DNA of 64,000 nucleotides, from positions 67,456-131,455 of the forward strand of contig CASFAV010000006.1 of NCBI GenBank assembly GCA_949292905.1, given 5' to 3'. Positions 2,723 to 37,079 of the stretch are shown piece after piece. This DNA comes from an uncultured Eubacteriales bacterium. GTDB taxonomy: Bacteria; Bacillota; Clostridia; Christensenellales; DTU072. Every line of letters starts with the position of its first letter. Position 1 is the first letter of the stretch. The position numbers and the translations under genes were made by a program. The notes under the pieces were generated by a model. It searched no databases. It had not been told where the DNA came from and worked only from the letters and a program-made list of their open reading frames with translations.

Positions 2723-3412
2723 ATGAAAGTGAAAGTGAACGGCGTGGAATTGTATTACGAAAGGACGGGAAGCGGACGTCCGCTCGTGCTTCTGCACGGC
2801 AACGGGGAAGATCATAAGATCTTCGACAGCTTCTTGCCGCTCGTCAAGGACGAATTCACCGTGTATGCGTTGGATTCGAGGAGCCACGGCCAAAGTTCGC
2901 GCGCAAAGCTCGATTACCGCGAGATGGCGCGCGACGTCGAGGGATTCATCGAAGCTTCGGGACTTGTGAAACCCGTCGTGGCGGGCTTTTCCGACGGGGG
3001 CATCGTAGCCCTCATGATTGCCGCAGCCGGCAGGGCGGATATCCGCGCGATAGCCGCGTTCGGCGCCAACTCTAAGCCCGAAGGGATCAAACGCCGTTGG
3101 CGATTTTTATTCAAATTGGGATACTTTTTCACACATTCCGAGTACCTTAAATTAATGATAGAAGAACCGCACATCTCGTCGGAGGAGCTTAAAGCGATAA
3201 AGGTGCCCGCGCTTATCACGGTGGGCGAACGGGATATGATATACCCCGAGCACGTCAAAAGCATCGCCGACGGTATTTCAGGCGCGGAGTTTGTCGAAGT
3301 GCCCGGCGAGGGACACGCTTCTTACGTTACCGACGGTAAGAAGCTTTATTCTGTAGCCGGAGAATTTCTCGGGAGGATGAACGATCGATATGAACGAGCA
3401 ACACGAAATTAA
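2723..3412 (+). CDS. alpha/beta hydrolase
   Basis: 229 aa with an LLHGNGEDH oxyanion region and a GFSDGG nucleophile elbow. Confidence 0.8.
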   Translation: MKVKVNGVELYYERTGSGRPLVLLHGNGEDHKIFDSFLPLVKDEFTVYALDSRSHGQSSRAKLDYREMARDVEGFIEASGLVKPVVAGFSDGGIVALMIAAAGRADIRAIAAFGANSKPEGIKRRWRFLFKLGYFFTHSEYLKLMIEEPHISSEELKAIKVPALITVGERDMIYPEHVKSIADGISGAEFVEVPGEGHASYVTDGKKLYSVAGEFLGRMNDRYERATRN

Positions 3413-4406
3413 AAAGCCCACGCCCCTTCTCGACGAAAAAGGCGCGCTCGCCGAACCGGGATATTGCAAGCGCAATCTTTTTATTTACGACCGCGCGGCG
3501 ATAACGGCTCCTTCGCTCCGGCTCAAAGAATGGGATTTCTACGAGATATCCGACGGGAAAACGATGGTGCAGGTCAATTTTGCGGACATTTCCTTAGGCG
3601 CCGCGGCTACCGCCGACGTAATAGATTTTTCGAGCGGGAAGAAACTTTCTTCCGCCAAAGTCGTGCTATTCCCGCGGAAGAGGTTTCTTCCGCTCAACGG
3701 CGACGTCGAACACCGCTTCGAATTCGTTAAGGGGAAGACGAAGCTACTTTTCGACGTCACGGAGCGTGCGCGGAAAATATACTTTTCGGACGGGAAACTT
3801 GAGATAGATATTACCGCGCGGCGCGATCCCGCCGCCGAATCGATAACGATAGCCACTCCGTTCAAAAAGCGCAACCGCTTTTTCTATACCAACAAGATAA
3901 ACTGCATGCCAGCGCGTGGCACGGTAAGATATCGCGGGGAAACATTCAAAGAGTTTTCGGAGGAAGATACCTTTGCCGTGCTCGACTGGGGCAGGGGAGT
4001 GTGGCCTTACAGCAATTACTGGTACTGGGCGAACGGCTCTGCGCGGCTTGAGGACGGTAAGCTTTTCGGCTTCGAACTCACCTGGGGTATAGGCGACGAG
4101 TCCCACGCCACGGAAACGATGCTTTTTTACGACGGCAAAGCTCACAAAATAGGCGCCGTCGACGTCGAAACGCCTCCCGACGGCAGGTGGACGGAGCCGT
4201 GGCATTTTATTTCCGAGGACGGCAGGCTGGATCTTACTATGGTGCCTTTTTACGACAACTTCAATCCCTTTAACCTCGGCGTGGTGAAATTCACCTGTCA
4301 TCAGGTGCACGGCTTGTGGTCGGGGCGCGTCGTACTCGACGACGGCAAGATTATCGAGGTCCGGGATATGTACGCCTTCGCCGAAAAAATGTACAACAGA
4401 TGGTAA
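3390..4406 (+). CDS. DUF2804-family protein
   Basis: 338 aa. The N-terminal pattern LLDEKGALAEPGY...LKEWDFYEI and the Trp-rich C-terminal half match my memory of DUF2804. GGGAGGA lies upstream. Confidence 0.7.
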   Translation: MNEQHEIKKPTPLLDEKGALAEPGYCKRNLFIYDRAAITAPSLRLKEWDFYEISDGKTMVQVNFADISLGAAATADVIDFSSGKKLSSAKVVLFPRKRFLPLNGDVEHRFEFVKGKTKLLFDVTERARKIYFSDGKLEIDITARRDPAAESITIATPFKKRNRFFYTNKINCMPARGTVRYRGETFKEFSEEDTFAVLDWGRGVWPYSNYWYWANGSARLEDGKLFGFELTWGIGDESHATETMLFYDGKAHKIGAVDVETPPDGRWTEPWHFISEDGRLDLTMVPFYDNFNPFNLGVVKFTCHQVHGLWSGRVVLDDGKIIEVRDMYAFAEKMYNRW

Positions 4407-4436
4407 GAAATTCAAATCGAATTTTCATATAAACAA

Positions 4437-4466
4437 TTGACAAAGCTTCAGGCGCGGCGTTATACT
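4437..4466 (+). promoter_or_regulatory. sigma-70-type promoter of the aromatic operon leader
   Basis: TTGACA (4437-4442), 18-nt spacer, TATACT (4461-4466). Confidence 0.6.
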
Positions 4467-4472
4467 TTAGCT

Positions 4473-4535
4473 ATGAAAAAGCAAAATCTTTCCGTTTACG
4501 CATATTACTTTTACTTTAGCTACGAGGTAGCTTGA
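4473..4535 (+). CDS. candidate leader peptide MKKQNLSVYAYYFYFSYEVA (Tyr/Phe-rich)
   Basis: 20 codons plus TGA, too short to appear in the ORF track. Codons 9-17 (4497-4523) contain 5 Tyr and 2 Phe. The ATG lies 6 nt after the -10 element, so translation would be leaderless. A terminator and the aro operon follow. Confidence 0.55.
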   Translation: MKKQNLSVYAYYFYFSYEVA

Positions 4536-4571
4536 TTTTGCGTAGACGGTAAGGTCATATCTGAGCACACG

Positions 4572-4600
4572 GAAACCGCCTCGCAAGAAGCGGTTTTTTT
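4572..4600 (+). terminator. intrinsic terminator / attenuator ahead of aroF
   Basis: AAACCGC (4573-4579) pairs with GCGGTTT (4590-4596), followed by a run of 7 T. It sits 38 nt before the aroF start. Confidence 0.75.
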
Positions 4601-4638
4601 GATAAAAACATAAACGCGAAGGCGTAAAGAGGTAAAAT

Positions 4639-5655
4639 ATGATAGTAACGATCAAAAGGAACAGCAATCCCGTACAAATCGAGAGGCTTACGCGCTGGAT
4701 CAAGAATCTCGGTCTCGAATGTCACATGAGCGAAGGCGAAAAATCCACCGTCATCGGGCTCGTGGGAGACACGAGCAAGGTGGATATAGATCTTTTGAGG
4801 TCGCTGGAGATAGTGGAAGCGGTCACGCGGATACAGGAGCCTTACAAGAACGCGAACCGTAAATTCCACCCCGACGACACGATAGTCGACGTGAAAGGGG
4901 TGAAGTTTGGCGGCAGTCATTTCCAGATAATCGCGGGACCGTGCTCCATAGAGACCGAAAAACAGGTGATAGGCATCGCCGAAGCCGTCAAGGCGGCGGG
5001 CGCGTCGGTATTGCGCGGCGGCGCTTTCAAGCCGCGCACCTCGCCTTACGCCTTCCAGGGACTGGGTCTCAAAGGACTCGAGATACTTAAGAAAGCTTCC
5101 CGCGAAACGGGACTCCCCATCGTGACGGAGATAATGAGCGAGAAGTACATCGACGCATTCGCGGACGTCGACATCATACAGATAGGCGCGCGCAATATGC
5201 AGAATTTCGATCTTCTGAAAGCGGTAGGCAAACTGCGTAAGCCGATACTTCTGAAGCGCGGGCTCGCCAACACCATAGAGGAATGGCTCATGAGCGCCGA
5301 ATACATCATGTCCGAGGGCAACAACGAGATAATCCTCTGCGAACGCGGCATAAGGACTTTCGAGCCGTACACGAGGAATACGCTCGACCTTTCGGCGATA
5401 CCGCTTCTCAAGGAGAAAACGCATCTTCCCATCATCGTCGACCCTTCGCATGCGTCCGGGCTGTCGAGACTCGTCAAACCGTTGTCGCTCGCTTCGGTGG
5501 GCGTGGGCGCGGACGGGCTCATGATAGAAGTGCACAACGATCCGCAACACGCCCTTTGCGACGGAGCGCAGTCGCTTCGTCCCGATCAGTTCGCCGACGT
5601 CGTCAAAGCCGTCGACGTGATGCTTCCGCTCGTCAATAAGGAGAGAGACAAGTGA
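4639..5655 (+). CDS. aroF: 3-deoxy-7-phosphoheptulonate (DAHP) synthase, type I-beta, with N-terminal regulatory domain
   Basis: 338 aa with the LRGGAFKPRTSPYAFQGLG motif. The roughly 65-aa N-terminal extension is like the Thermotoga-type ferredoxin-like regulatory domain. Confidence 0.93.
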   Translation: MIVTIKRNSNPVQIERLTRWIKNLGLECHMSEGEKSTVIGLVGDTSKVDIDLLRSLEIVEAVTRIQEPYKNANRKFHPDDTIVDVKGVKFGGSHFQIIAGPCSIETEKQVIGIAEAVKAAGASVLRGGAFKPRTSPYAFQGLGLKGLEILKKASRETGLPIVTEIMSEKYIDAFADVDIIQIGARNMQNFDLLKAVGKLRKPILLKRGLANTIEEWLMSAEYIMSEGNNEIILCERGIRTFEPYTRNTLDLSAIPLLKEKTHLPIIVDPSHASGLSRLVKPLSLASVGVGADGLMIEVHNDPQHALCDGAQSLRPDQFADVVKAVDVMLPLVNKERDK

Positions 5656-6506
5656 AAATCGGTATCGTAGGACTGGGATTGATAGGCGGCTCGCTCGGCA
5701 GACAGATAATACGCAATACCTCGCACACGGTGTACGGCTACGACATTTCCGAAGACGCCATGCTTAAGGCGCAGATGCTGAACGCCTGTCACGAAAGGCT
5801 TGACGTCGAAGCGGAGCGGATGGATCTGGACTTGTTGATCGTGGCGCTCTGCCCCGAAGCCGCCATAAAAGTTATTCGCGAATTCGCGCCGCGCATGAAA
5901 AAGGGCTCGATAATCATAGATACCTGCGGCACAAAGCGCAAAGTCGTCGCGGCGATGGGCGCGTTGAAGGACGAATATCCCGACGTGGGCTTCGTCGGCG
6001 TGCACCCGATGGCGGGCAGGGAATACAGCGGCATATCTCATTCCACCGCCACTCTTTTCGAACACGCTTACATAATCCTCACTCCGGTACGTACGGATCT
6101 CGAAGCCGAAGAGAAGATAAGAGCGTTTTTCCTCGAGGCTGGTTGCGAGGGGATAACCACGGCGAGCGCCGCGACGCACGACAGGATGATAGCCTACACG
6201 TCGCAACTCGCTCACGTCGTTTCCTCCGCTTATATCCGCAATCCGCTTTCGGAGACTTACGTCGGCTTTTCCGCAGGAAGCTTCAGGGATCTGACGAGAG
6301 TGGCGAAACTGAACCCCGATATGTGGACGGAACTTTTCACCGAGAATAAGGACAATCTCGTCGAATGTATAGACGTACTTCAGCAGAAATTATCGGAATA
6401 CCGCGACGCGCTCGTAGCGGGCGATAACGCTAAACTTCACGCCGCGCTCAAGGAAGGAACGATGATGAAAGAGGCGGCGGAGAAATTGAGGAGAGACAGG
6501 AAATGA
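5652..6506 (+). CDS. tyrA: prephenate dehydrogenase
   Basis: GTG start overlapping the aroF stop. MKIGIVGLGLIGGSLG Rossmann motif and the GVHPMAG motif. Confidence 0.9.
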   Translation: MKIGIVGLGLIGGSLGRQIIRNTSHTVYGYDISEDAMLKAQMLNACHERLDVEAERMDLDLLIVALCPEAAIKVIREFAPRMKKGSIIIDTCGTKRKVVAAMGALKDEYPDVGFVGVHPMAGREYSGISHSTATLFEHAYIILTPVRTDLEAEEKIRAFFLEAGCEGITTASAATHDRMIAYTSQLAHVVSSAYIRNPLSETYVGFSAGSFRDLTRVAKLNPDMWTELFTENKDNLVECIDVLQQKLSEYRDALVAGDNAKLHAALKEGTMMKEAAEKLRRDRK

Positions 6507-7762
6507 GCGTCAAAGCCGTTCGCCCGCATAGGCTCGAGGGAGTAGTAAATATCCCCGCTTCCAAGTCATACGGACACAGACTTCTTATTGAAAGTTTCGC
6601 TTCGGGTAACCCCGTGACAGTAAAAGGTAACCTAATCGGCGACGATATTGAAGCCACCGTCGGGTGCCTCAGGTCTTGCGGAACAAGGATAGAGCGCTCG
6701 GAGCGCGGTATAAAAGTGATCCCCTCCGATAAGCCCGCGAAGCGCGCCGACGTGTTCTGTAAGGAGTCGGGCTCCACGTTGAGATTTTTGATGTCGGTGT
6801 TGCCCGCCGTGGGAGTAGAAGCCTCTTTTTCGGGATCGGGCGAGCTTCCTTCGCGCCCCGTGGGCGCGCTTCTCGACTGCCTTGCCGAGGCGGGAGTTAC
6901 CGCGGACAAGCCGCGGCTTCCGTTTACGTTGCGCGGAAGCTTCGCGCGCGGAACGCGCTTCGTGCTCAAGGAACTCAAAAGCTCGCAGGACGTAAGCGGA
7001 CTTCTCATGGCTATGCCTTTGATAGAGGGCGCTTCTCTGGAGATAGAGGGCGCGCTTCCGTCCGAAGGGTACGTTTCGGTCACTCTTGAAACGCTGGAGG
7101 CTTTCGGGGTGCGTTACGAGCGGAAAGGCAACGCCTACCGTCCGTTGAACTCTTACGGCGCGCCGAGCGAGGTGGAAGCGGAAGGGGACTGGAGCAGCGC
7201 CGCTTTCATTGCTGTCGCGGGCGTGCTTACCGGTGAAACGGAGATAAAGGGATTGAAATATCCCTCCCTTCAGCCCGATTCCGCTATCGTAGGGCTTCTT
7301 AAAGAAGCGGGCGCGGATATAGGTTTTGCGGGCGGCGCGCTCGTAGCGCGTAGATCCGCGCTACGAGCGATCGAATTCGACGCCGACGGTTGCCCCGATC
7401 TGGTGCCGGCGATGTCGGTAGCTCTCGCCGCGGCGAAAGGAGTTTCCGTCATACGCGGCGTGGACAGACTGCGTTTCAAGGAGTCGGACAGGATAGCTTC
7501 CGTCATAAACATGCTTAAGGAGTTCGGCATACGCGCGGAGTACGCGGAGAACGGACTTAAAATTTACGGAGGGGAGCTCGCGGGCGGCGGAGTAGTCGAC
7601 GGCGCCGGCGATCACAGGATAGCCATGAGCGCCGCAATAGCGGCTTCGGCGGCTTCGGGAGATAAGGAAACGCTCGTTCGCGGCGCGGAATGCGTGTCCA
7701 AATCATATCCCTGTTTTTACGAAGATATCGCCGTGCTCGGAGGAATAGTGTATGAAAGGTGA
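6503..7762 (+). CDS. aroA: 3-phosphoshikimate 1-carboxyvinyltransferase (EPSP synthase)
   Basis: 419 aa with IPASKSYGHR, the ...DHRIAM motif and KESDR. ATGA overlap with tyrA. Confidence 0.93.
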   Translation: MSVKAVRPHRLEGVVNIPASKSYGHRLLIESFASGNPVTVKGNLIGDDIEATVGCLRSCGTRIERSERGIKVIPSDKPAKRADVFCKESGSTLRFLMSVLPAVGVEASFSGSGELPSRPVGALLDCLAEAGVTADKPRLPFTLRGSFARGTRFVLKELKSSQDVSGLLMAMPLIEGASLEIEGALPSEGYVSVTLETLEAFGVRYERKGNAYRPLNSYGAPSEVEAEGDWSSAAFIAVAGVLTGETEIKGLKYPSLQPDSAIVGLLKEAGADIGFAGGALVARRSALRAIEFDADGCPDLVPAMSVALAAAKGVSVIRGVDRLRFKESDRIASVINMLKEFGIRAEYAENGLKIYGGELAGGGVVDGAGDHRIAMSAAIAASAASGDKETLVRGAECVSKSYPCFYEDIAVLGGIVYER

Positions 7763-8822
7763 CGTTTTGACCGTAGAAGTATACGGCGCTTCGCACGCCG
7801 TCGCCACAGGCGTGAAAATTACCGGTATTCCCGCAGGGACGGAAATAGATCGCGCGGCGATAGACGCGCTTCTCTTAAGAAGGCGCGCGGTCAACGCCCC
7901 GTGGTCCACTTCGCGTATCGAGAAGGACGAATACGTTTTTTCGGGAGGCGTGGAGAACGGTATCGCCAACGGCGGCACGATAACCGCTGAAATACCGAAT
8001 ACGAATACGAGAAGTTCCGATTACGGCGAATTCAGGAACGTTCCGCGTCCCTCTCACGCCGACTACGCGGCGATGGTAAAGGACGGCACCCGCGAGGTAG
8101 CGCCGGGAGGGGGCAGATTTTCGGGAAGGATGACCGCGCCTCTTTGCATAGCGGGCGGTATCGCGGAAGGTATGCTCGTGAAGAAAGGAGTGTACGTATG
8201 CGCTTACGTCTCTTCGATAGGCAACGTAGAAGGCAGAAGCTATAAAGAGGGCGTTCCCGCGCGGGAAGAGGTGTCCGACGCGCAACGCTTTCCGTTACCC
8301 GCGCTCGACAAGCGTGAGGAAATGCTTGAGGAGATAATCGCCGCCGCTTCGGCGGGCGACAGCGTGGGCGGTACTGTAGAATGCGCGGTCTACGGTCTTC
8401 CCGCGGGGATAGGCGACTATATGACCGACGGCATGGAGTCCGCGATAGCGGCGAGCGTGTACGGCGTGCCCGCGGTGAAGGGAGTGGAATTCGGGGACGG
8501 TTTTTCTCTTTCGCGCATGCGCGGAAGCGAAGCCAACGATCCTTTCGCCTACAAGGACGGCAAGGTCGTCACGCTCACCAACAGAAGCGGCGGTATCAAC
8601 GGCGGTATCACCAACGGAATGCCGCTCACGCTGCGCGTGGCGGTAAGACCGACGCCGTCGATAGCGAAGGAACAGCGTAGCGTAAACGTACTGACGAGAG
8701 AGAACGTCATATTGAGAATAAAAGGGCGCCACGACGCCTGTATAGTCCCGCGCGCGGTCGCGGCGGTGGAAAGCGCGGTAGCGCTGGCGGTGCTCGATAA
8801 AATGCTTGCCGAAGGTAAGTGA
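7752..8822 (+). CDS. aroC: chorismate synthase
   Basis: 356 aa with the motifs RPSHADY, GGGRFSGRMTA and GRHDACIVPRA. Confidence 0.93.
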   Translation: MKGDVLTVEVYGASHAVATGVKITGIPAGTEIDRAAIDALLLRRRAVNAPWSTSRIEKDEYVFSGGVENGIANGGTITAEIPNTNTRSSDYGEFRNVPRPSHADYAAMVKDGTREVAPGGGRFSGRMTAPLCIAGGIAEGMLVKKGVYVCAYVSSIGNVEGRSYKEGVPAREEVSDAQRFPLPALDKREEMLEEIIAAASAGDSVGGTVECAVYGLPAGIGDYMTDGMESAIAASVYGVPAVKGVEFGDGFSLSRMRGSEANDPFAYKDGKVVTLTNRSGGINGGITNGMPLTLRVAVRPTPSIAKEQRSVNVLTRENVILRIKGRHDACIVPRAVAAVESAVALAVLDKMLAEGK

Positions 8823-8831
8823 GGAAGGGAT

Positions 8832-10313
8832 ATGGACATCAAAAATTACAGGGATAAACTCGACGTCATAGACGATCGTATCGCGGCGCTTTTCAAGGAG
8901 CGTTTAGAGGTCGTAAGAGAAATAGGGCTTTGGAAAAAATCGTGCGGCTCACCCACTTTACACGGCGACAGGGAGAAAGCCATTCTCTCAAGGCTGCTTC
9001 CCCGTTTCGACGAGGGGCTCAAAGGCTATGCGGAGCAACTTTATCTCGAAATATTCCGTTCGAGCAAGGAATATCAGCGCGGATTGCTCGGTACCTATTA
9101 CGTCGTAGGCAAAAGCCTTAAGCATACCTGGTCGCCCGATATCTACGTGCCGCTGGGACTCGATTACCGCGTCAAAGAATTCGCGGACGAAAATGAGCTC
9201 GCAGAATTCGTTAAGCGCCGCGAATATTCCGGTTTCAACGTGACTATACCGTATAAGAAAGCGGTCATGAAAATGCTGGACGAAATATCCGAAGAAGCGC
9301 GCGCGATAGGGGCGGTCAATACGGTGGTGAACCGCAACGGGAAGCTGTACGGCTACAATACCGACATAGGCGGAATGAGATACGCATTGAAGGCGGCGGG
9401 CATCGAAGTGCAAGGCAAAGCAGTCGCCGTGCTCGGAAGCGGCGGCACCGCGATGACGGCGGAGTATCTTCTCCGTACCGGCGGGGCGCGAGAGATAGTG
9501 AAGGTTTCGCGCCGCGGTCCCGTAGATTATATCTCCGTATACGATCGTAAGGACATAGAAGTTATCTTGAACACGACTCCCGTGGGGATGTTCCCCGAAG
9601 CGGAATCGACTCCGATAGACGTGACGAAATTCCCCGCGCTCGAAGGAGTTTTCGACGCGATATATAATCCGTTGAGGACGGCGCTGGTGTCCGGAGCGAG
9701 AGCTGCGGGTATCGCCGCAAGCGGCGGACTGCCCATGCTCGTGGAGCAGGGAAGATTGGCATATAACATATACAGGGATACCGAAACAGATATATCGGTA
9801 ACCGAAAATCTTATAAAACAGATTGAACTCAAAAAGTCGAACATTATTCTGTGCGGCATGCCTTCGTCGGGGAAAACTACTATAGGCAGGCTCCTTGCGG
9901 AAGCTTTGGGCAGGGAATTCTACGACGCCGACGAGGAGATAGAGAAGGCGGCGGGCATGGGTATACCTGAGATGTTCGAGCGCTTTGGCGAGGAATATTT
10001 CCGTAAGAAAGAGGTGGAAGCGATAGCCTCTCTTTCAGCTCTCAACGGCGCGGTCATCGCTACCGGCGGCGGCGCGGTGATGAACGAGATCAACCGTATG
10101 CGGCTCAAGCGCAACGGCATAGTCGTGCTTATCGAGCGCGACAACGCCGCGCTCGTTGCGGACGGCAGACCCGTCAGCAGGCGCGAAGGCATAGAGGCGC
10201 TTTATAATAAGCGCATGCCCGTTTACAGAGAGTTCGCGGATCTTTCGGTAAGTAACGACTCAGCGCCGGAGGACGCAGTGAAAAGCATTATTCGGCGGGT
10301 GTTTTCCGTATAA
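8832..10313 (+). CDS. trifunctional fusion: chorismate mutase (aa 1-85) / shikimate dehydrogenase (aa ~88-330) / shikimate kinase (aa ~335-493)
   Basis: The N-terminus (YRDKLDVIDDRIAALFKERLEVVREIG) is AroQ-class chorismate mutase. The middle has NVTIPYK, NTD and GSGGTA, as in AroE. The C-terminus has the P-loop CGMPSSGKTTIGRLLA and ...YDADEEIE, as in AroK. Confidence 0.88.
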   Translation: MDIKNYRDKLDVIDDRIAALFKERLEVVREIGLWKKSCGSPTLHGDREKAILSRLLPRFDEGLKGYAEQLYLEIFRSSKEYQRGLLGTYYVVGKSLKHTWSPDIYVPLGLDYRVKEFADENELAEFVKRREYSGFNVTIPYKKAVMKMLDEISEEARAIGAVNTVVNRNGKLYGYNTDIGGMRYALKAAGIEVQGKAVAVLGSGGTAMTAEYLLRTGGAREIVKVSRRGPVDYISVYDRKDIEVILNTTPVGMFPEAESTPIDVTKFPALEGVFDAIYNPLRTALVSGARAAGIAASGGLPMLVEQGRLAYNIYRDTETDISVTENLIKQIELKKSNIILCGMPSSGKTTIGRLLAEALGREFYDADEEIEKAAGMGIPEMFERFGEEYFRKKEVEAIASLSALNGAVIATGGGAVMNEINRMRLKRNGIVVLIERDNAALVADGRPVSRREGIEALYNKRMPVYREFADLSVSNDSAPEDAVKSIIRRVFSV

Positions 10314-10440: not shown

Positions 10441-11355
10441 ATGGACGAATTAAAAGATCTGCGCATAGTGGATAATTTTTATCAGACTTCGGCGTTTTTC
10501 CCGATGCCTACGATCCTCGTCGGCACGATTTCCGAAAGCGGTATGACCAACCTCGGCTCGTATTCGCTGTGTTTCCCTTATTATATCGCCGGCAAAGATT
10601 ATTACGCGATGCTTCTCGAATGCCGCAACAGCTCCAATACCGCGCAGAATATTCTGAGGAACAAGACGGTTTCCTTGAACTTCATACCCGATAAACGCAA
10701 GTATTTCCGCGAAGCGGTGCGACTCGGTTTTCCCGGAGAAACTACCGAACAGAAAATGAAAAACTGCATCTTCACTCTCCGTAAAGGAGAAGCGGAAGGC
10801 AGACGTCCGGAGATCGTCGAAGAAGCGTTCCAGGTATTCGAATGCACGTGGGACGATTCGCTCGAACGGGCTTTCGAGGACAAGGCGGGCAATCTCGAAG
10901 GTTACGAGCCGCCGTACCGCAATTTCAACGGTATAACCAGTAAATTCGGGGCGCATTTCATATTGAAGATCGACAAGATCCTTATGAAGGAGAAATACCG
11001 CAACGCGATAGTAGACGGCGTTAAGGCGGGTGCGTTCCCTGCGGTACCCGTGGATTACGGTTACCGCGACAGCACCAATTTCTGGTACACGAAATTCCGT
11101 CGTCCGATACCGGAGAAGATACAGGCGAAAGAGGGCGACGTCCAATCGGTGATATACGCGGCTTCGAGGATAGATCCTGCGGTGAAATTCACCGACGGTG
11201 CTTGCGCCAAGCTTACGAAGATACCGCGCGTGTTCCTGAAAGCGGCGTTGACGCAGATGGTGGAGATAGCGAAGAGCGAAGGCATAAGCGTTATCGACGA
11301 AGCGGCGCTCGACGTTATCAACGACAAGCGCAGAGAGGAGAAGAAACGTAAGTAA
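10441..11355 (+). CDS. flavin-reductase-like (FMN-binding split barrel) protein with a C-terminal PCP_red-like domain
   Basis: 304 aa. The N-terminal pattern FPMPTILVGT..G..NLGSYS is typical of flavin reductase-like domains. The C-terminal FTDGACAKLTKIPRVFLKAALTQMVEIAKSEG resembles the protochlorophyllide-reductase C-terminal (PCP_red) motif. Both assignments are from memory. Confidence 0.6.
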   Translation: MDELKDLRIVDNFYQTSAFFPMPTILVGTISESGMTNLGSYSLCFPYYIAGKDYYAMLLECRNSSNTAQNILRNKTVSLNFIPDKRKYFREAVRLGFPGETTEQKMKNCIFTLRKGEAEGRRPEIVEEAFQVFECTWDDSLERAFEDKAGNLEGYEPPYRNFNGITSKFGAHFILKIDKILMKEKYRNAIVDGVKAGAFPAVPVDYGYRDSTNFWYTKFRRPIPEKIQAKEGDVQSVIYAASRIDPAVKFTDGACAKLTKIPRVFLKAALTQMVEIAKSEGISVIDEAALDVINDKRREEKKRK

Positions 11356-13991: not shown

Positions 13992-14024
13992 TCCTTCTTC
14001 ATTTTCGGAATTCGGCTATTACGC

Positions 14025-14053
14025 TTGGCAAACCCCTTCGTCCGCGACATAAT
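14025..14053 (+). promoter_or_regulatory. sigma-70-type promoter-like element
   Basis: TTGGCA, 17-nt spacer, CATAAT. Confidence 0.45.
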
Positions 14054-14077
14054 ATCGGTAAAAATAAGTAAAAACCG

Positions 14078-14587
14078 TTGCAAAAACGGGAAGAACCGCA
14101 TCCCTTCGGTTATATATTCGGTACCGATTCATATGCCGGCGGAACGGAAGTCGAGCAGTATTATTACGGTAGCAGTACTTCATACACGACGTCGACCACA
14201 TATTATATACCCGCGAGCCTACGAAGCGTCACTGTAACGGGCGGGAATATCCTGTACGGAGCGTTCCGTAATTGCTCGATGCTTACCTCGGTGACTATAG
14301 GGAACTCGGTCACAAGCATAGGAAGATATGCCTTCCGGAATTGCACGGGACTTACCTCGGTGGCGATAGGGCACTCGGTCACGAGCATAGGAAGTTATGC
14401 CTTTTGGGGGTGCACGGTTACTTCAGCCATATTCGAGGATACCGAGGGCTGGCAGGTGTCGTTGTTTAGCTCTTTCAGTAATTATACTTCGCTCGCGAGC
14501 ACCGATCTTGCGGACGCTTCCACTGCGGCTGAATATCTCATCAGGTCGACATACCACAGTTATTACTGGCGTAAGGTAGCGGCATAA
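14078..14587 (+). pseudogene. BspA-type leucine-rich-repeat protein, apparent C-terminal remnant
   Basis: Repeats of the form IPASLRSVTV..AFRNCSMLTSVTIGNSVTSIGRYAFRNCTGLTSVAIGHSVTSIGSYAFWGC. The ORF opens on TTG with no Shine-Dalgarno site, no signal peptide and no ATG for about 65 codons. Proteins of this family are normally large and secreted. Confidence 0.55.
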
Positions 14588-32391: not shown

Positions 32392-32668
32392 AACAACCAT
32401 AAACCGTTGACGCAGAGTAGTAACTCGAGGGAAGCGCAGAGAGATATCCGGTACGGTGTGACGGAGAAGCGGAATCCGAGCGAATGGACTGCCGAGGGTC
32501 GGTGCGAACGCATCAGTCAGTAGTGCCGGACGGGAACTCCCGTAACAGAGTCAGGATATGACGGTATCCGTGAATTAAGGTCGGACTCGAGGTCCGGCGA
32601 AGTCGGGTGGCAACACGAAACGATATGATTCGTCCCGACGCAGTAACAGTCTGCGTCGGGATTTTATT
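32392..32668 (+). promoter_or_regulatory. T-box riboswitch, Trp specifier (UGG)
   Basis: Stem I elements AGTAGTA, AGAGA and GGTGTGA. Specifier GAA-TGG-A (TGG at 32485-32487). T-box sequence AAGTCGGGTGGCAACACG (32600-32617). Terminator TCCCGACGCAG / CTGCGTCGGGA plus a T-run (32633-32668). Confidence 0.85.
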
Positions 32669-32707
32669 ATACAAAAATCAAAACTTACTCAAAGGAGGCA
32701 CACAACA

Positions 32708-34087
32708 ATGACCAAAACGACGGACATTCCCTACAAGATCTATTTAACCGAAGACGAAATGCCGCGTAGCTGGTACAACGTCCGTGCCGATATGCCGGAA
32801 AAGCACGATCCGATGCTCAATCCCGCGACGCTCGAACCCGCGACGAGAGAGGAACTCGAGAAGGTATTTTGTTCCGCGGTGGTGGAGCAGGAGCTCAACC
32901 AGACGGACAGATACATAGAGATCCCCGATGGCATAAGGAATTTCTACAAGATGTACAGACCTTCGCCCCTGGTAAGAGCGTATTGCCTTGAGAAAGCGCT
33001 CGGCACCCCCGCGGAGATATACTACAAATTCGAGGGCAACAACACTTCGGGGTCGCATAAGCTCAATTCGGCGGCGGCGCAGGCATATTACGCCAAGCAG
33101 GAGGGACTCACCTCGCTCACTACCGAAACGGGAGCGGGACAATGGGGTACCGCGTTGTCGATGGCGTGCGCCTTCTTCGGACTCGACCTGACCGTATTCA
33201 TGGTAAAGGTCAGCAGCGAGCAGAAGCCGCACCGCAGAGAGGTCATGCGCACCTACGGCGCCAAGGTCATACCTTCGCCTTCGGACACCACGGAATGCGG
33301 CAGGGCGATACTCAAAGCACATCCCGGAACGGGCGGCTCGCTCGGATGCGCCATTTCCGAAGCCGTAGAAGTGGCGGTATCCACTCCCGGCTGTCGTTAC
33401 GGTCTGGGCTCCGTACTCGATCACGTTCTCCTGCATCAGTCTATAATAGGCTGCGAGAGCAAGATAGCCCTCGACAAGTACGGCGTACACCCCGATATGA
33501 TCATCGGTTGCGCGGGCGGCGGCTCCAACCTCGGCGGACTTATCAGTCCGTTTATGGGGGAGAAACTGCGCGGCGAACGCGATTACCGTTTCATCGCCGT
33601 CGAGCCCGTTTCCTGCCCTTCGCTCACGAGAGGCAAATACCTTTACGACTTCGGCGATACAGGCAAGATAACTCCTCTCATGAAAATGTATACCCTGGGT
33701 TGCGACTTCATACCCTCCGCCAATCACGCGGGCGGGCTACGTTACCACGGAATGAGCGCGGTGATAAGCAAACTTTATCACGACGGATTTATAGAAGCGA
33801 GAAGCGTGGAACAGACCTCCGTTTTCAAAGCCGCGGAAGCTTTCGCGCGTACCGAAGGCATACTGCCCGCCCCCGAATCCTCTCACGCCATACGCGTGGC
33901 GATAGACGAGGCGTTGAAGTGTAAGGAGACCGGCGAAAAGAAGGTGATACTTTTCGGACTTACCGGAACGGGGTATTTCGATATGACGGCGTATAAGAAA
34001 TTCAACGACGGCGAGATGAGCGACTATGTCCCCACCGACGAGGAGATAGAGAAGAGCGTCGCGCAACTCGAGCCTTACAACAAATAA
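32708..34087 (+). CDS. trpB: TrpB-like PLP enzyme, TrpB2 (long) subfamily tryptophan synthase beta chain
   Basis: 459 aa. The N-terminal extension (...EMPRSWYNVRADMPEKHDP) is typical of TrpB2. Motifs HKLNSA (PLP lysine) and GCAGGGSN. Confidence 0.88.
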   Translation: MTKTTDIPYKIYLTEDEMPRSWYNVRADMPEKHDPMLNPATLEPATREELEKVFCSAVVEQELNQTDRYIEIPDGIRNFYKMYRPSPLVRAYCLEKALGTPAEIYYKFEGNNTSGSHKLNSAAAQAYYAKQEGLTSLTTETGAGQWGTALSMACAFFGLDLTVFMVKVSSEQKPHRREVMRTYGAKVIPSPSDTTECGRAILKAHPGTGGSLGCAISEAVEVAVSTPGCRYGLGSVLDHVLLHQSIIGCESKIALDKYGVHPDMIIGCAGGGSNLGGLISPFMGEKLRGERDYRFIAVEPVSCPSLTRGKYLYDFGDTGKITPLMKMYTLGCDFIPSANHAGGLRYHGMSAVISKLYHDGFIEARSVEQTSVFKAAEAFARTEGILPAPESSHAIRVAIDEALKCKETGEKKVILFGLTGTGYFDMTAYKKFNDGEMSDYVPTDEEIEKSVAQLEPYNK

Positions 34088-35564: not shown

Positions 35565-37079
35565 ATGAAAAGAAAATTTATATTGGCGGTTTGCGCCCTA
35601 CTTACGTCGGTATTGCTGTTAGGCGTGCTCGCAGGCTGTAACGCTACGCCGAAAAGGGTGGCGGGAAGCGGAATTGCCGCAGGCTATCCCACAGTCACCA
35701 CGACCGTTGCGGAGCTTGACGGCGCCAACATAGTCGCCTACGACGGCGAACTCGCAGTCGTTACGAAACAGGATTCGAACACGAATTCCACTCTGACGGG
35801 AGTTTACAATTTTAAATTGTGCAAATTCGTGGTGCCGTTTGACGCGCAGAACGTCGACCTCGACGTGGACGCAAACGGTAACGTGTTCTGCACCGAAGAC
35901 GCGGACACCGGCAAGCTCACTTATTACGACAGAACGGGCGTCGTACTCGCGCAGAACGTCACTCCCGGCACCGTATTCAATGCGGGCGTTAACTTCGTGG
36001 AGATAGGCAACAACCTTTATAACGTGGCGGACGGCGCGCTGAAAAGTCAGGTGATCAAGGGCTTCGGTTACGACTCCGACATACTCCTCGCTTCCGTCGA
36101 GAGCGATAACTATTTTTACTACTTCGTAAGCACGGACTGCTTGAAGATATTCTCCAAGGAAACGGGCAGCGTCGCCACCATAATCGAAGCGGGCGATCTC
36201 GAATACAATTCTACCGTCGACACCTCCGTATTCGTGCTTTACGGAGATACGTTGATACTTCAATACGTCGACCGTCTGCCCGACGACGCGACCAAGTACG
36301 ATTTTGCCGAGTCCAACTCGAAATACGACATTCGCCACTATCTTTACGACGTGGAGAAGAATAAGACCAAGGAAATCAGAAAATTCAATTATTTCATTCA
36401 ACTGGCAAAAGTGCCCGCGGTAAACGAAGAGTATTACGGCGAATACGACGAGGACATCGTCAACGTGCTCGCGGTCAACAAGATCGAGGATAAAAAACTC
36501 AAGACGAATATTTCTCACCTGTCCGTCAGCGACACGTTGAAAGTGAAATTCGATTTTGACGACATAACCGAAAGAGCGGAATATGCCGTCGCTTTCGGCG
36601 AGGGCTACATCGTGACCACCAACGAAGGCTACAATTACGTATACAGCAAAAACAACAAGTTCGTGGCGCCTCTCGGCGACGCGGCAGTCAGCGGCAAATA
36701 CGCCGTAGTGGGCGGCAACATTTATACGCTCGAAGGCAAAGAGATGGTGAAGAAAGCCTCTTACGACGCCAATACCTATAATATAGTTTCGCTTGCGGGC
36801 GACTACGTATTGCTTGCGGGCGTGGCGGACGGAAAGTATTACGGATGCAACGTCGGCGCTCAGCCGCAGGCTTTCAGCGGAACGGTGAGCTATATAGCCG
36901 ATAGTCGCATATATGCCGTGACCGACGGCACGGGCGCCGTAGCGCTATATTCTCTTACCGGAGAGCAGCTGCTCAACGGTCTGAGCTCGTTTGACGTTCA
37001 GGCGACCTACACGGGAGAGGACGGCAAGGTCACCACGCTTGCGCTTATCAACGGAAGTCAGTATATAGTTATCAAATAA
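35565..37079 (+). CDS. lipoprotein of unknown function
   Basis: Lipobox LAGC. The 504-aa mature part is rich in beta-strand-type repeats. GGAGGT Shine-Dalgarno site. Confidence 0.7.
   Translation: MKRKFILAVCALLTSVLLLGVLAGCNATPKRVAGSGIAAGYPTVTTTVAELDGANIVAYDGELAVVTKQDSNTNSTLTGVYNFKLCKFVVPFDAQNVDLDVDANGNVFCTEDADTGKLTYYDRTGVVLAQNVTPGTVFNAGVNFVEIGNNLYNVADGALKSQVIKGFGYDSDILLASVESDNYFYYFVSTDCLKIFSKETGSVATIIEAGDLEYNSTVDTSVFVLYGDTLILQYVDRLPDDATKYDFAESNSKYDIRHYLYDVEKNKTKEIRKFNYFIQLAKVPAVNEEYYGEYDEDIVNVLAVNKIEDKKLKTNISHLSVSDTLKVKFDFDDITERAEYAVAFGEGYIVTTNEGYNYVYSKNNKFVAPLGDAAVSGKYAVVGGNIYTLEGKEMVKKASYDANTYNIVSLAGDYVLLAGVADGKYYGCNVGAQPQAFSGTVSYIADSRIYAVTDGTGAVALYSLTGEQLLNGLSSFDVQATYTGEDGKVTTLALINGSQYIVIK

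Follow-up and report, generated by a model that had tools for sequence, protein, structure and literature searches.

A probable tyrosine/phenylalanine leader-peptide attenuator upstream of the aroF operon in an uncultured Clostridia bacterium and its relatives

How a member of the Clostridia might match its common aromatic pathway to the supply of tyrosine (Tyr) and phenylalanine (Phe) is the question raised by a short intergenic region of an uncultured Eubacteriales bacterium. The region lies in a stretch of 64,000 nucleotides (nt) from NCBI GenBank assembly GCA_949292905.1 (contig CASFAV010000006.1, positions 67,456 to 131,455 of the forward strand), the whole of which is referred to here as the window. 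It precedes an operon for DAHP synthase, prephenate dehydrogenase, EPSP synthase, chorismate synthase, and a chorismate mutase–AroE–AroK fusion, gene assignments that hold on re-examination. An initial annotation had read the region as a ribosome-mediated attenuator sensing Tyr and Phe; the promoter, the 20-codon open reading frame (ORF), a hairpin between two segments termed regions 1 and 2 (1:2), and an intrinsic terminator (3:4) are all present, and each lies where it had been placed (Table 1). The evidence assembled below agrees with that reading: conservation of the leader, the terminators, and 1:2 and 2:3 pairings that are both non-random across the family support it, and the element is most probably a leader-peptide transcription attenuator that tunes aroF-tyrA-aroA-aroC-(CM-aroE-aroK) to charged tRNA-Tyr and tRNA-Phe through the translating ribosome. 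A genuine ribosome-sensing switch, of a textbook kind but not yet catalogued, is very probable. Such a signal fits the pathway, as the operon makes chorismate, prephenate, and Tyr, and tryptophan (Trp) has its own T-box elsewhere in the window.

The comparison drew on the 80 best aroF loci among at least 596 matches in species-representative genomes, most of the 80 being metagenome-assembled genomes (MAGs) labelled Clostridia, Christensenellaceae, or Oscillospiraceae, with Oscillibacter valericigenes Sjm18-20 (L077) and Angelakisella massiliensis (L041) among them. A leader was scored automatically where an ATG-started ORF of no more than 45 codons, with at least six aromatic residues in a 10-codon span, lay within 400 nt upstream of aroF. 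By this measure 66 of 77 aroF-upstream segments contained a leader (86%), against 9 of 2356 control segments of 400 nt (0.38%). Manual checks added loci in which the frame is open upstream or the contig ends (L010, L039, L040, and L049) and two in which the leader lies ~480 nt upstream of aroF (L029 and L031). With these included, about 72 of the 80 species-level relatives, Christensenellales-like and Oscillospirales-like alike, keep the small ORF and its aromatic run ahead of aroF. A T-box was sought in the loci apparently without a leader, and none was found.

The leaders themselves differ widely in nucleotide and peptide sequence and range in length from 14 to 41 amino acids (aa); examples are MKKSIYAKFYAFYYFYRKTV, MKKVFNYYFYNFYFFRPY, MSKFAFAAEYFYFYFTNFFGKVKLNFAVNM, and MSSAAQFYFYYYYFFTQKK. 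Their composition is far more constant. In 69 distinct leaders, Tyr and Phe codons are equally numerous (278 each), with both Tyr codons in use (TAT 131, TAC 147), and Trp codons number six in total; at least two Tyr and at least two Phe occur in 68 of the 69. Conserved composition combined with varying sequence fits a sensor that works at the level of codons or tRNA, and not a functional peptide or an RNA-sequence motif.

In the window, five Tyr and two Phe codons do fall within nine consecutive codons (4497–4523). The minimum free energy (MFE) of 4473–4605 is −40.4 kcal/mol (z −4.0), a value equalled by none of 200 shuffles. The 1:2 duplex reaches −22.3 kcal/mol against −10.95 kcal/mol for dinucleotide shuffles (z −5.4; 0 of 1000); the two segments originally paired, 4492–4502 and 4539–4549, proved to be the core of a longer hairpin joining 4486–4507 to 4533–4555. 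The alternative pairing of region 2 with region 3 is also present and is larger than was first described, when it was taken to end within 4575–4584: an 11-bp helix with one bulge and one mismatch joins 4538–4550 to 4575–4586. Its energy is −13.8 kcal/mol as a duplex and −12.1 kcal/mol in context; a negligible energy would have told against the initial annotation, but a helix of about −12 to −13.8 kcal/mol is not negligible, and across the family the pairing is non-random. Masking region 1 and withholding the 3′ arm of the terminator yields an MFE structure that contains the 2:3 helix. Of the folds that were anticipated, 1:2 and 3:4 form at equilibrium, and the antiterminator emerges only while that arm is withheld. 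The intrinsic terminator was correctly recognised, although its T7 run (4594–4600) overlaps the 3′ arm of the stem and does not follow the stem, as had been supposed. The stop codon occupies 4533–4535 and region 2 begins 5 nt beyond its first nt, so that a terminating ribosome would cover most of region 2.

The anatomy and energetics of the switch, its conservation, and the co-variation of its parts are seen across about 70 species. Nearly all the leaders are followed by a terminator; those identified, in 62 loci, carry a U run, have a median energy of −18.5 kcal/mol, and begin their 5′ arm a median of 39.5 nt after the first nt of the stop codon. An antiterminator was scored by fixed criteria—the RNA was masked to 12 nt past the last aromatic codon, the 3′ arm was withheld, and at least 5 nt of the 5′ arm had to pair upstream—and was found in 55 of these 62 loci. 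In 50 of the 55, the start of region 2 falls either inside the ORF or no more than 13 nt past the first nt of the stop, where a ribosome at the stop would cover it. The Christensenellales-like set places region 2 3–16 nt after the first nt of the stop (median 8.5), and the Oscillospirales-like set places it inside the 3′ part of a longer ORF; the spacing is conserved in the sense that, in both layouts, a terminating ribosome would cover region 2.

Terminator sequences vary by locus, and region 2 changes along with the terminator. Native 2:3 duplexes have a mean energy of −12.27 kcal/mol, compared with −8.93 kcal/mol when partners are swapped between loci (z −10.4; 0 of 20000 permutations), and native 1:2 duplexes a mean of −12.27 kcal/mol, compared with −9.68 kcal/mol (z −7.9). 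Because correlated GC content could inflate such a swap test, 2:3 was retested by dinucleotide shuffles of region 2 within each locus; the mean z was −1.55, p was ≤0.05 in 24 of 62 loci where 3 were expected, and the Wilcoxon p was 3e-9 once near-duplicate loci had been removed. For the terminated state, in which 1:2 and 3:4 are formed, a covariance model (R1) was trained on the leaders of the window, L001, and L039; its matches comprised no more than 13 true leaders and two spurious ones at E > 0.6. In the alignment fitted to R1, which leans toward the structure modelled, 90% of cells are paired for 1:2 and 3:4 and 32 of 39 pairs changed on both sides, a result that 0 of 500 shuffles reached. 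Within it, the four multi-pair 1:2 helices are 83%–97% paired with many compensatory changes; pairing reaches 96.5% in the inner hairpin at the end of the ORF (helix 5), where 5 of 6 pairs show two-sided changes, and 92% in the terminator helix, where 9 of 13 pairs do. A MAFFT alignment of ten leaderless-type leaders misaligned the terminators and was excluded from the pair counts.

Several observations weigh against an attenuator of this kind. The 2:3 helix is the weakest link of the model in the window and is marginal there: taken alone, its duplex is no better than dinucleotide shuffles (z −1.25 to −1.8). Equilibrium folding keeps the terminator at every progressive 5′ truncation, and masking region 1 leaves the terminated fold (−19.2 kcal/mol) more stable than the antiterminated one (−12.5 kcal/mol). 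The terminator of the window is itself modest, with a stem of 8–9 bp and a stability of −11.8 to −14.1 kcal/mol, and its interrupted loop of 10 nt lets it escape a simple terminator scan. Counted in a fixed register on the alignment fitted to 1:2 and 3:4, 2:3 is paired in 58% of cells, with a covariation score equalled or exceeded in 24 of 500 shuffles; the register of this helix differs between loci, and the swap and shuffle tests above, which need no fixed register, were used in place of this count. Since equilibrium folds always retain the terminator, the switch would have to be kinetic; kinetic control is accepted for the trp attenuator of Escherichia coli. Two further points come from the literature. 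At the level of the phylum, Bacillota have been assigned to the ‘runaway transcription’ organisms (PMC13323073), so synchrony between the ribosome and RNA polymerase would need a local pause. In Corynebacterium, expression under the aroR leader is reported to be affected by Phe only, and not by Tyr (PMC11802643), and hence dual sensing of Tyr and Phe is not assured.

The attenuator is predicted to operate as follows, every step from the start of transcription and the reading of the leader to ribosome stalling and the starvation response being deduced from sequence. Transcription would start at or beside A4473, so that the mRNA opens with the leader AUG and is translated without a Shine–Dalgarno (SD) sequence. 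With both Tyr and Phe plentiful, the ribosome would run to the UGA at 4533–4535 and cover region 2; after its release, or without translation of the leader, region 1 would capture region 2 instead. Whether covered or captured, region 2 would leave region 3 free, the 3:4 terminator would form, and transcription would stop before aroF. Should either Tyr or Phe be scarce, the ribosome would stall at 4497–4523 and mask region 1; region 2 would then pair with 4575–4586 as soon as that segment has been transcribed, and the terminator would be kinetically blocked, allowing read-through into aroF. A DUF2804 gene (3390–4406) lies directly 5′ of the leader promoter, with only a weak AT-rich inverted repeat (~4408–4426) between them; transcripts that run through from this gene would thus reach the leader and, as they would not be translated there, should form 1:2 and 3:4 and terminate. 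If this scheme is true, promoter escape, loading of the 70S ribosome on the 5′-AUG, and the termination decision would all take place within ~130 nt, and tight synchrony between ribosome and RNA polymerase would be required in a phylum regarded as one of runaway transcription.

The leaderless start is a claim of its own, which the comparison makes probable. The window promoter, TTGACA-18-TATACT, matches the consensus at 11 of 12 positions and is the sole sigma-70-like site within 3800–5200; with 6 nt between the −10 element and the AUG, the A of that codon is where a sigma-70 promoter would canonically have its +1. Most relatives are arranged otherwise: an SD-like 4-mer at −4 to −17 precedes ~48 of ~70 leaders when counted locus by locus, compared with a rate of 10.9% over ATG triplets at large, and the −10 element of SD-led leaders lies 20–30 nt upstream. 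Ten loci lack an SD sequence (the window, L001, L002, L007, L008, L014, L015, L016, L019, and L039), and these share a perfect TTGACA, a spacer of 17–18 nt, a −10 hexamer, and 6 nt (7 in one) to the ATG; the leader of an aroF paralog in L008 is an eleventh with the same layout of TTGACA, −10, 6 nt, and ATG. In all sequence examined, a promoter of this kind ends 5–8 nt upstream of an ATG at only 20 of 15064 ATG triplets (0.13%), and 11 of those 20 correspond to leader ATGs. All eleven SD-less leaders open with AUG followed by A-rich codons. The SD-led and leaderless layouts are mutually exclusive across species, which is taken as good, though indirect, evidence for a leaderless mRNA; the start first deduced for the window is supported by an invariant gap in ten species and a paralog.

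Among competing explanations, the one that survives best accepts the attenuator and disputes its leaderless start: transcription could begin further upstream or arrive by read-through from the DUF2804 gene, with the ATG used in some non-SD manner, or the +1 could lie a few nt off A4473. No strong terminator separates the upstream gene (3390–4406) from the promoter, and the ordinary SD-led leader of most relatives is also in keeping with this explanation. Such a start is nevertheless rather unlikely, given the recurrence of a 6–7-nt gap with a perfect TTGACA and no SD sequence in ten species and the L008 paralog, the rarity of such a promoter at ATG triplets generally, and the uniform AUG and A-rich opening of all eleven leaders.

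A good deal less likely is an RNA switch independent of translation, in which conserved U/A-rich triplets and hairpins bind a protein, a tRNA, or a ligand in a TRAP-, T-box-, or riboswitch-like manner and the ORF is incidental. Both the 1:2 hairpin and the terminator would form without translation, and systems of this type are common in Bacillota. At gathering score, however, Rfam gives no match at the leader site, whether riboswitch or T-box, and the matches at E ≤ 10 (OrzO-P, Phe_leader, and LhrC) are all at chance level. Membership in Phe_leader (RF01859) was rejected at 19.3 bits and E = 0.63, the gathering threshold being 55, and the T-box model (RF00230) has no match at 4380–4680 even at E ≤ 10. 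Moreover, the aromatic triplets are always in frame with an ATG, itself served by an SD sequence or a leaderless promoter, and with a stop that adjoins region 2; synonymous codons vary, and the nucleotide sequence is not conserved.

Slightly more improbable still is that the short ORF encodes a functional aromatic-rich peptide, or a TnaC-like nascent-chain arrest peptide that senses free amino acids. The peptides are indeed hydrophobic and aromatic, and three leaders of 30–35 aa that were looked up are present, without a name, in a collection of 15 billion proteins, having been called as genes in public assemblies; the 20-aa leader of the window and one other 20-aa leader are absent from it. 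No family match was found for the leader peptides in Pfam or NCBIfam. Length and sequence vary freely, only the density of Tyr and Phe and its position relative to the helices being conserved, and the ORF is always coupled to a terminator before aroF. A chance ORF in an intergenic region with a promoter and a terminator or insulator—plausible from the window alone, where a 20-codon ORF and a modest hairpin could coincide and 2:3 is individually marginal—is effectively refuted by the frequency of leaders upstream of aroF relative to controls and by the co-variation of regions 1, 2, and 3 across 62 loci.

Some members of the family show features of their own. A second architectural subtype is formed by the Oscillospirales-like loci L034–L080, in which leaders are 25–41 aa long and region 2 lies inside the ORF, not past the stop; in these leaders the aromatic run is preceded by a common F-A-A-(A/E)-E-Y-type motif, and the C-terminus is extended, for example by GKAYFGLAENECV. 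Loci L044, L056, L035, L055, and L068 carry Tyr/Phe leaders in contigs labelled Bacteroidaceae, Oligosphaeraceae, Veillonella, Peptococcaceae, and Anaerovoracaceae, and several of these leaders contain a Trp codon. Horizontal transfer of aroF together with its leader, or wrong bin labels, could account for them. On the minus strand of L008 (406–1640), a second aroF paralog (406–1422) has its own Tyr/Phe leader, MKNKEMAFAYYFYFNYAS, at 1519–1575, as well as its own antiterminator and terminator and a leaderless-type promoter (TTGACA-17-TAAACT-6-ATG); one genome thus holds two copies of the switch. In L029 (2517–3000) and L031 (2525–3000), the leader and terminator are followed by a spacer of ~350 nt conserved among L029, L030, and L031. 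This spacer matches nothing in Rfam (best E = 0.09) and lacks a convincing ORF; it may be a second regulatory element in tandem.

Elsewhere in the window, its sole T-box lies at 32398–32640 (94.4 bits) and has a UGG (Trp) specifier, in agreement with the initial annotation, which had placed a Trp T-box at 32.4 kb. The T-box (region 32398–34087) precedes a stand-alone pyridoxal phosphate-dependent enzyme of 459 aa (Pfam PALP, TrpB-like), and not a trp operon; the ORF after that enzyme encodes a GlcNAc 2-epimerase-family protein. Directly after the aro operon stands a 304-aa ORF (10441–11355) without a Pfam or NCBIfam match, and a 504-aa ORF at 35565–37079 has no Pfam match. A second aromatic-rich ORF, on the minus strand at 14019–14132 (37 codons, 6 of 10 aromatic, …FTYFYRYYVA…), lies within the plus-strand ORF 14078–14587; about one such match per 64 kb is expected by chance, and it is taken as such.

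Table 1. Positions of the leader, its predicted RNA elements, and the aro operon in the window
Feature	Position	Strand	Remarks
−35 hexamer TTGACA	4437..4442	+	Perfect; same relative position in 10 related loci
−10 hexamer TATACT	4461..4466	+	18 nt 3′ of −35 and 6 nt 5′ of ATG; predicted +1 at A4473
Leader ORF MKKQNLSVYAYYFYFSYEVA	4473..4535	+	20 codons and TGA stop; ATG at 4473; no SD; leaderless 5′-AUG predicted
Regulatory codon run Y-A-Y-Y-F-Y-F-S-Y	4497..4523	+	5 Tyr and 2 Phe; codons 9–17; predicted ribosome stall sites
Region 1	4486..4507	+	5′ arm of long 1:2 hairpin, core 4492–4502; MFE structure; overlaps start of Tyr/Phe run
Inner hairpin AGCUAC-GAG-GUAGCU	4518..4532	+	At ORF end; from folding
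Region 2	4538..4555	+	Partner of region 1 via 4539–4555, or of region 3 via 4538–4550
Region 3	4575..4586	+	Terminator 5′ arm and loop, antiterminator partner of region 2; from folding/duplex
2:3 pairs			U4538-A4586 to G4542-C4582, A4544-U4581, G4545-C4580, C4547-G4578 to U4550-A4575
Intrinsic terminator hairpin (3:4)	4568..4601	+	Core 4571–4579 with 4590–4598; U tract 4594–4600
aroF ribosome-binding site and start	4627..4641	+	AAGAGG 4627–4632, ATG 4639–4641; not sequestered by leader structures
aroF	4639–5655	+	DAHP synthase; first gene of the putatively regulated operon 4639..10313
tyrA	5652–6506	+	Prephenate dehydrogenase; aro operon
aroA	6503–7762	+	EPSP synthase; aro operon
aroC	7752–8822	+	Chorismate synthase; aro operon
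CM_2-AroE-AroK fusion	8832–10313	+	CM_2/AroE/SKI: chorismate mutase/shikimate dehydrogenase/shikimate kinase; aro operon

A wider proposal is advanced tentatively, as its chances are judged to fall a little short of even: that the window holds the type example of an uncatalogued attenuator family present in at least 70 species-level genomes of gut Clostridia, Christensenellales-like or Oscillospirales-like, and also in contigs that bear the labels of other phyla, and that this family reads Tyr and Phe jointly through equal codon doses and is leaderless in one clade. Classical leader-peptide attenuation would then be no oddity in Bacillota: in two large orders of gut Clostridia for which T-boxes might have been predicted, it would be the main means of controlling the common aromatic pathway. 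A conserved ribosome-dependent attenuator is somewhat notable in a phylum to which runaway transcription is ascribed, and the SD-led and leaderless versions of the same switch offer a natural comparison for how ribosome and RNA polymerase are synchronised where transcription is thought to outrun translation. The equal dose of Tyr and Phe, without Trp, predicts a logic in which either amino acid induces the operon; this could be tested in cultured carriers such as O. valericigenes Sjm18-20 and A. massiliensis. For annotation, a Tyr/Phe-rich short ORF followed by a terminator upstream of aroF supplies a rule applicable to hundreds of MAGs.

Literature searches did not turn up a Tyr/Phe leader described in Christensenellales or Oscillospirales, an absence that is not proof, as most subscription journals lay outside the search. 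The novelty is lower than the initial annotation implied: the Tyr/Phe family is uncatalogued, but leader attenuation is not new to Bacillota, having been predicted there already, and aroF leaders are known in Corynebacterium and have been proposed in Acholeplasma. The T-box (RF00230), which is the usual solution in Bacillota, resembles the present system in sensing tRNA charging and in choosing between terminator and antiterminator, but it binds uncharged tRNA directly and without translation. The element would work like pheL-pheA of E. coli and the wider trpL/hisL class: a short ORF rich in codons for the end product, alternative 1:2, 2:3, and 3:4 pairings, a terminator before the first biosynthetic gene, and a stop placed such that a terminating ribosome covers region 2. 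There is no homology of sequence or structure with pheL, however; across the family Tyr and Phe codons come in equal dose where pheL has a run of Phe, the leader precedes aroF and the common pathway and not pheA, the host belongs to the class Clostridia, and the start is predicted to be leaderless in the clade of the window.

Precedents within Bacillota and allied lineages are predictions. Histidine (His) leader-peptide attenuators have been predicted in the Bacillus cereus group, Peptostreptococcaceae, and Erysipelotrichales (PMC2965389 and PMC9413887). Like the Tyr/Phe leaders, these are of the classical type, replace T-boxes, and come from comparative genomics; they concern a different amino acid and operon, and a leaderless start is not reported for His systems in the portions of these sources consulted. 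A second precedent is uORFC-13-1 (Brewer et al. 2021, PMC8632094), a predicted upstream ORF (uORF) before aroF whose 24 representatives are reported solely from Acholeplasma and from environmental DNA without assignment; attenuation governed by the speed of Phe incorporation was proposed for it. It, too, stands upstream of aroF, immediately before an intrinsic terminator, and in a Bacillota-related lineage; going by the published description only, it differs in having a U run that encodes at least one Phe, with a ribosome-binding site and without mention of Tyr, whereas the window leader has no ribosome-binding site.

In Corynebacterium glutamicum, the aroR leader peptide precedes aroF and acts through ribosome stalling (Neshat et al. 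2014, as summarised in PMC11802643). Insofar as that summary describes it, aroR shares with the present leaders its Phe and Tyr codons, its place before a DAHP-synthase operon, and the stalling; it has a single Phe-Tyr-Phe triplet and a response reported for Phe only, where the present leaders have 6–9 aromatic codons, ~4 Tyr and 4 Phe. The phyla differ, and the two are likened by feature, not by homology. Leaderless leader ORFs are common in Actinobacteria. The polycysteine short ORFs of mycobacteria are described, in the part of the report drawn on here, as leaderless and as cysteine (Cys)-responsive attenuators (bioRxiv 10.1101/834739); they are thus alike in placing a regulatory ORF at the 5′ end of a leaderless transcript in order to sense amino-acid supply, and unlike in being actinobacterial and in sensing Cys. 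Set beside these systems, the mechanism proposed for the window is classical attenuation and not new; what is new is the family, which has not been catalogued, is widespread in gut Clostridia, and includes a leaderless sub-type.

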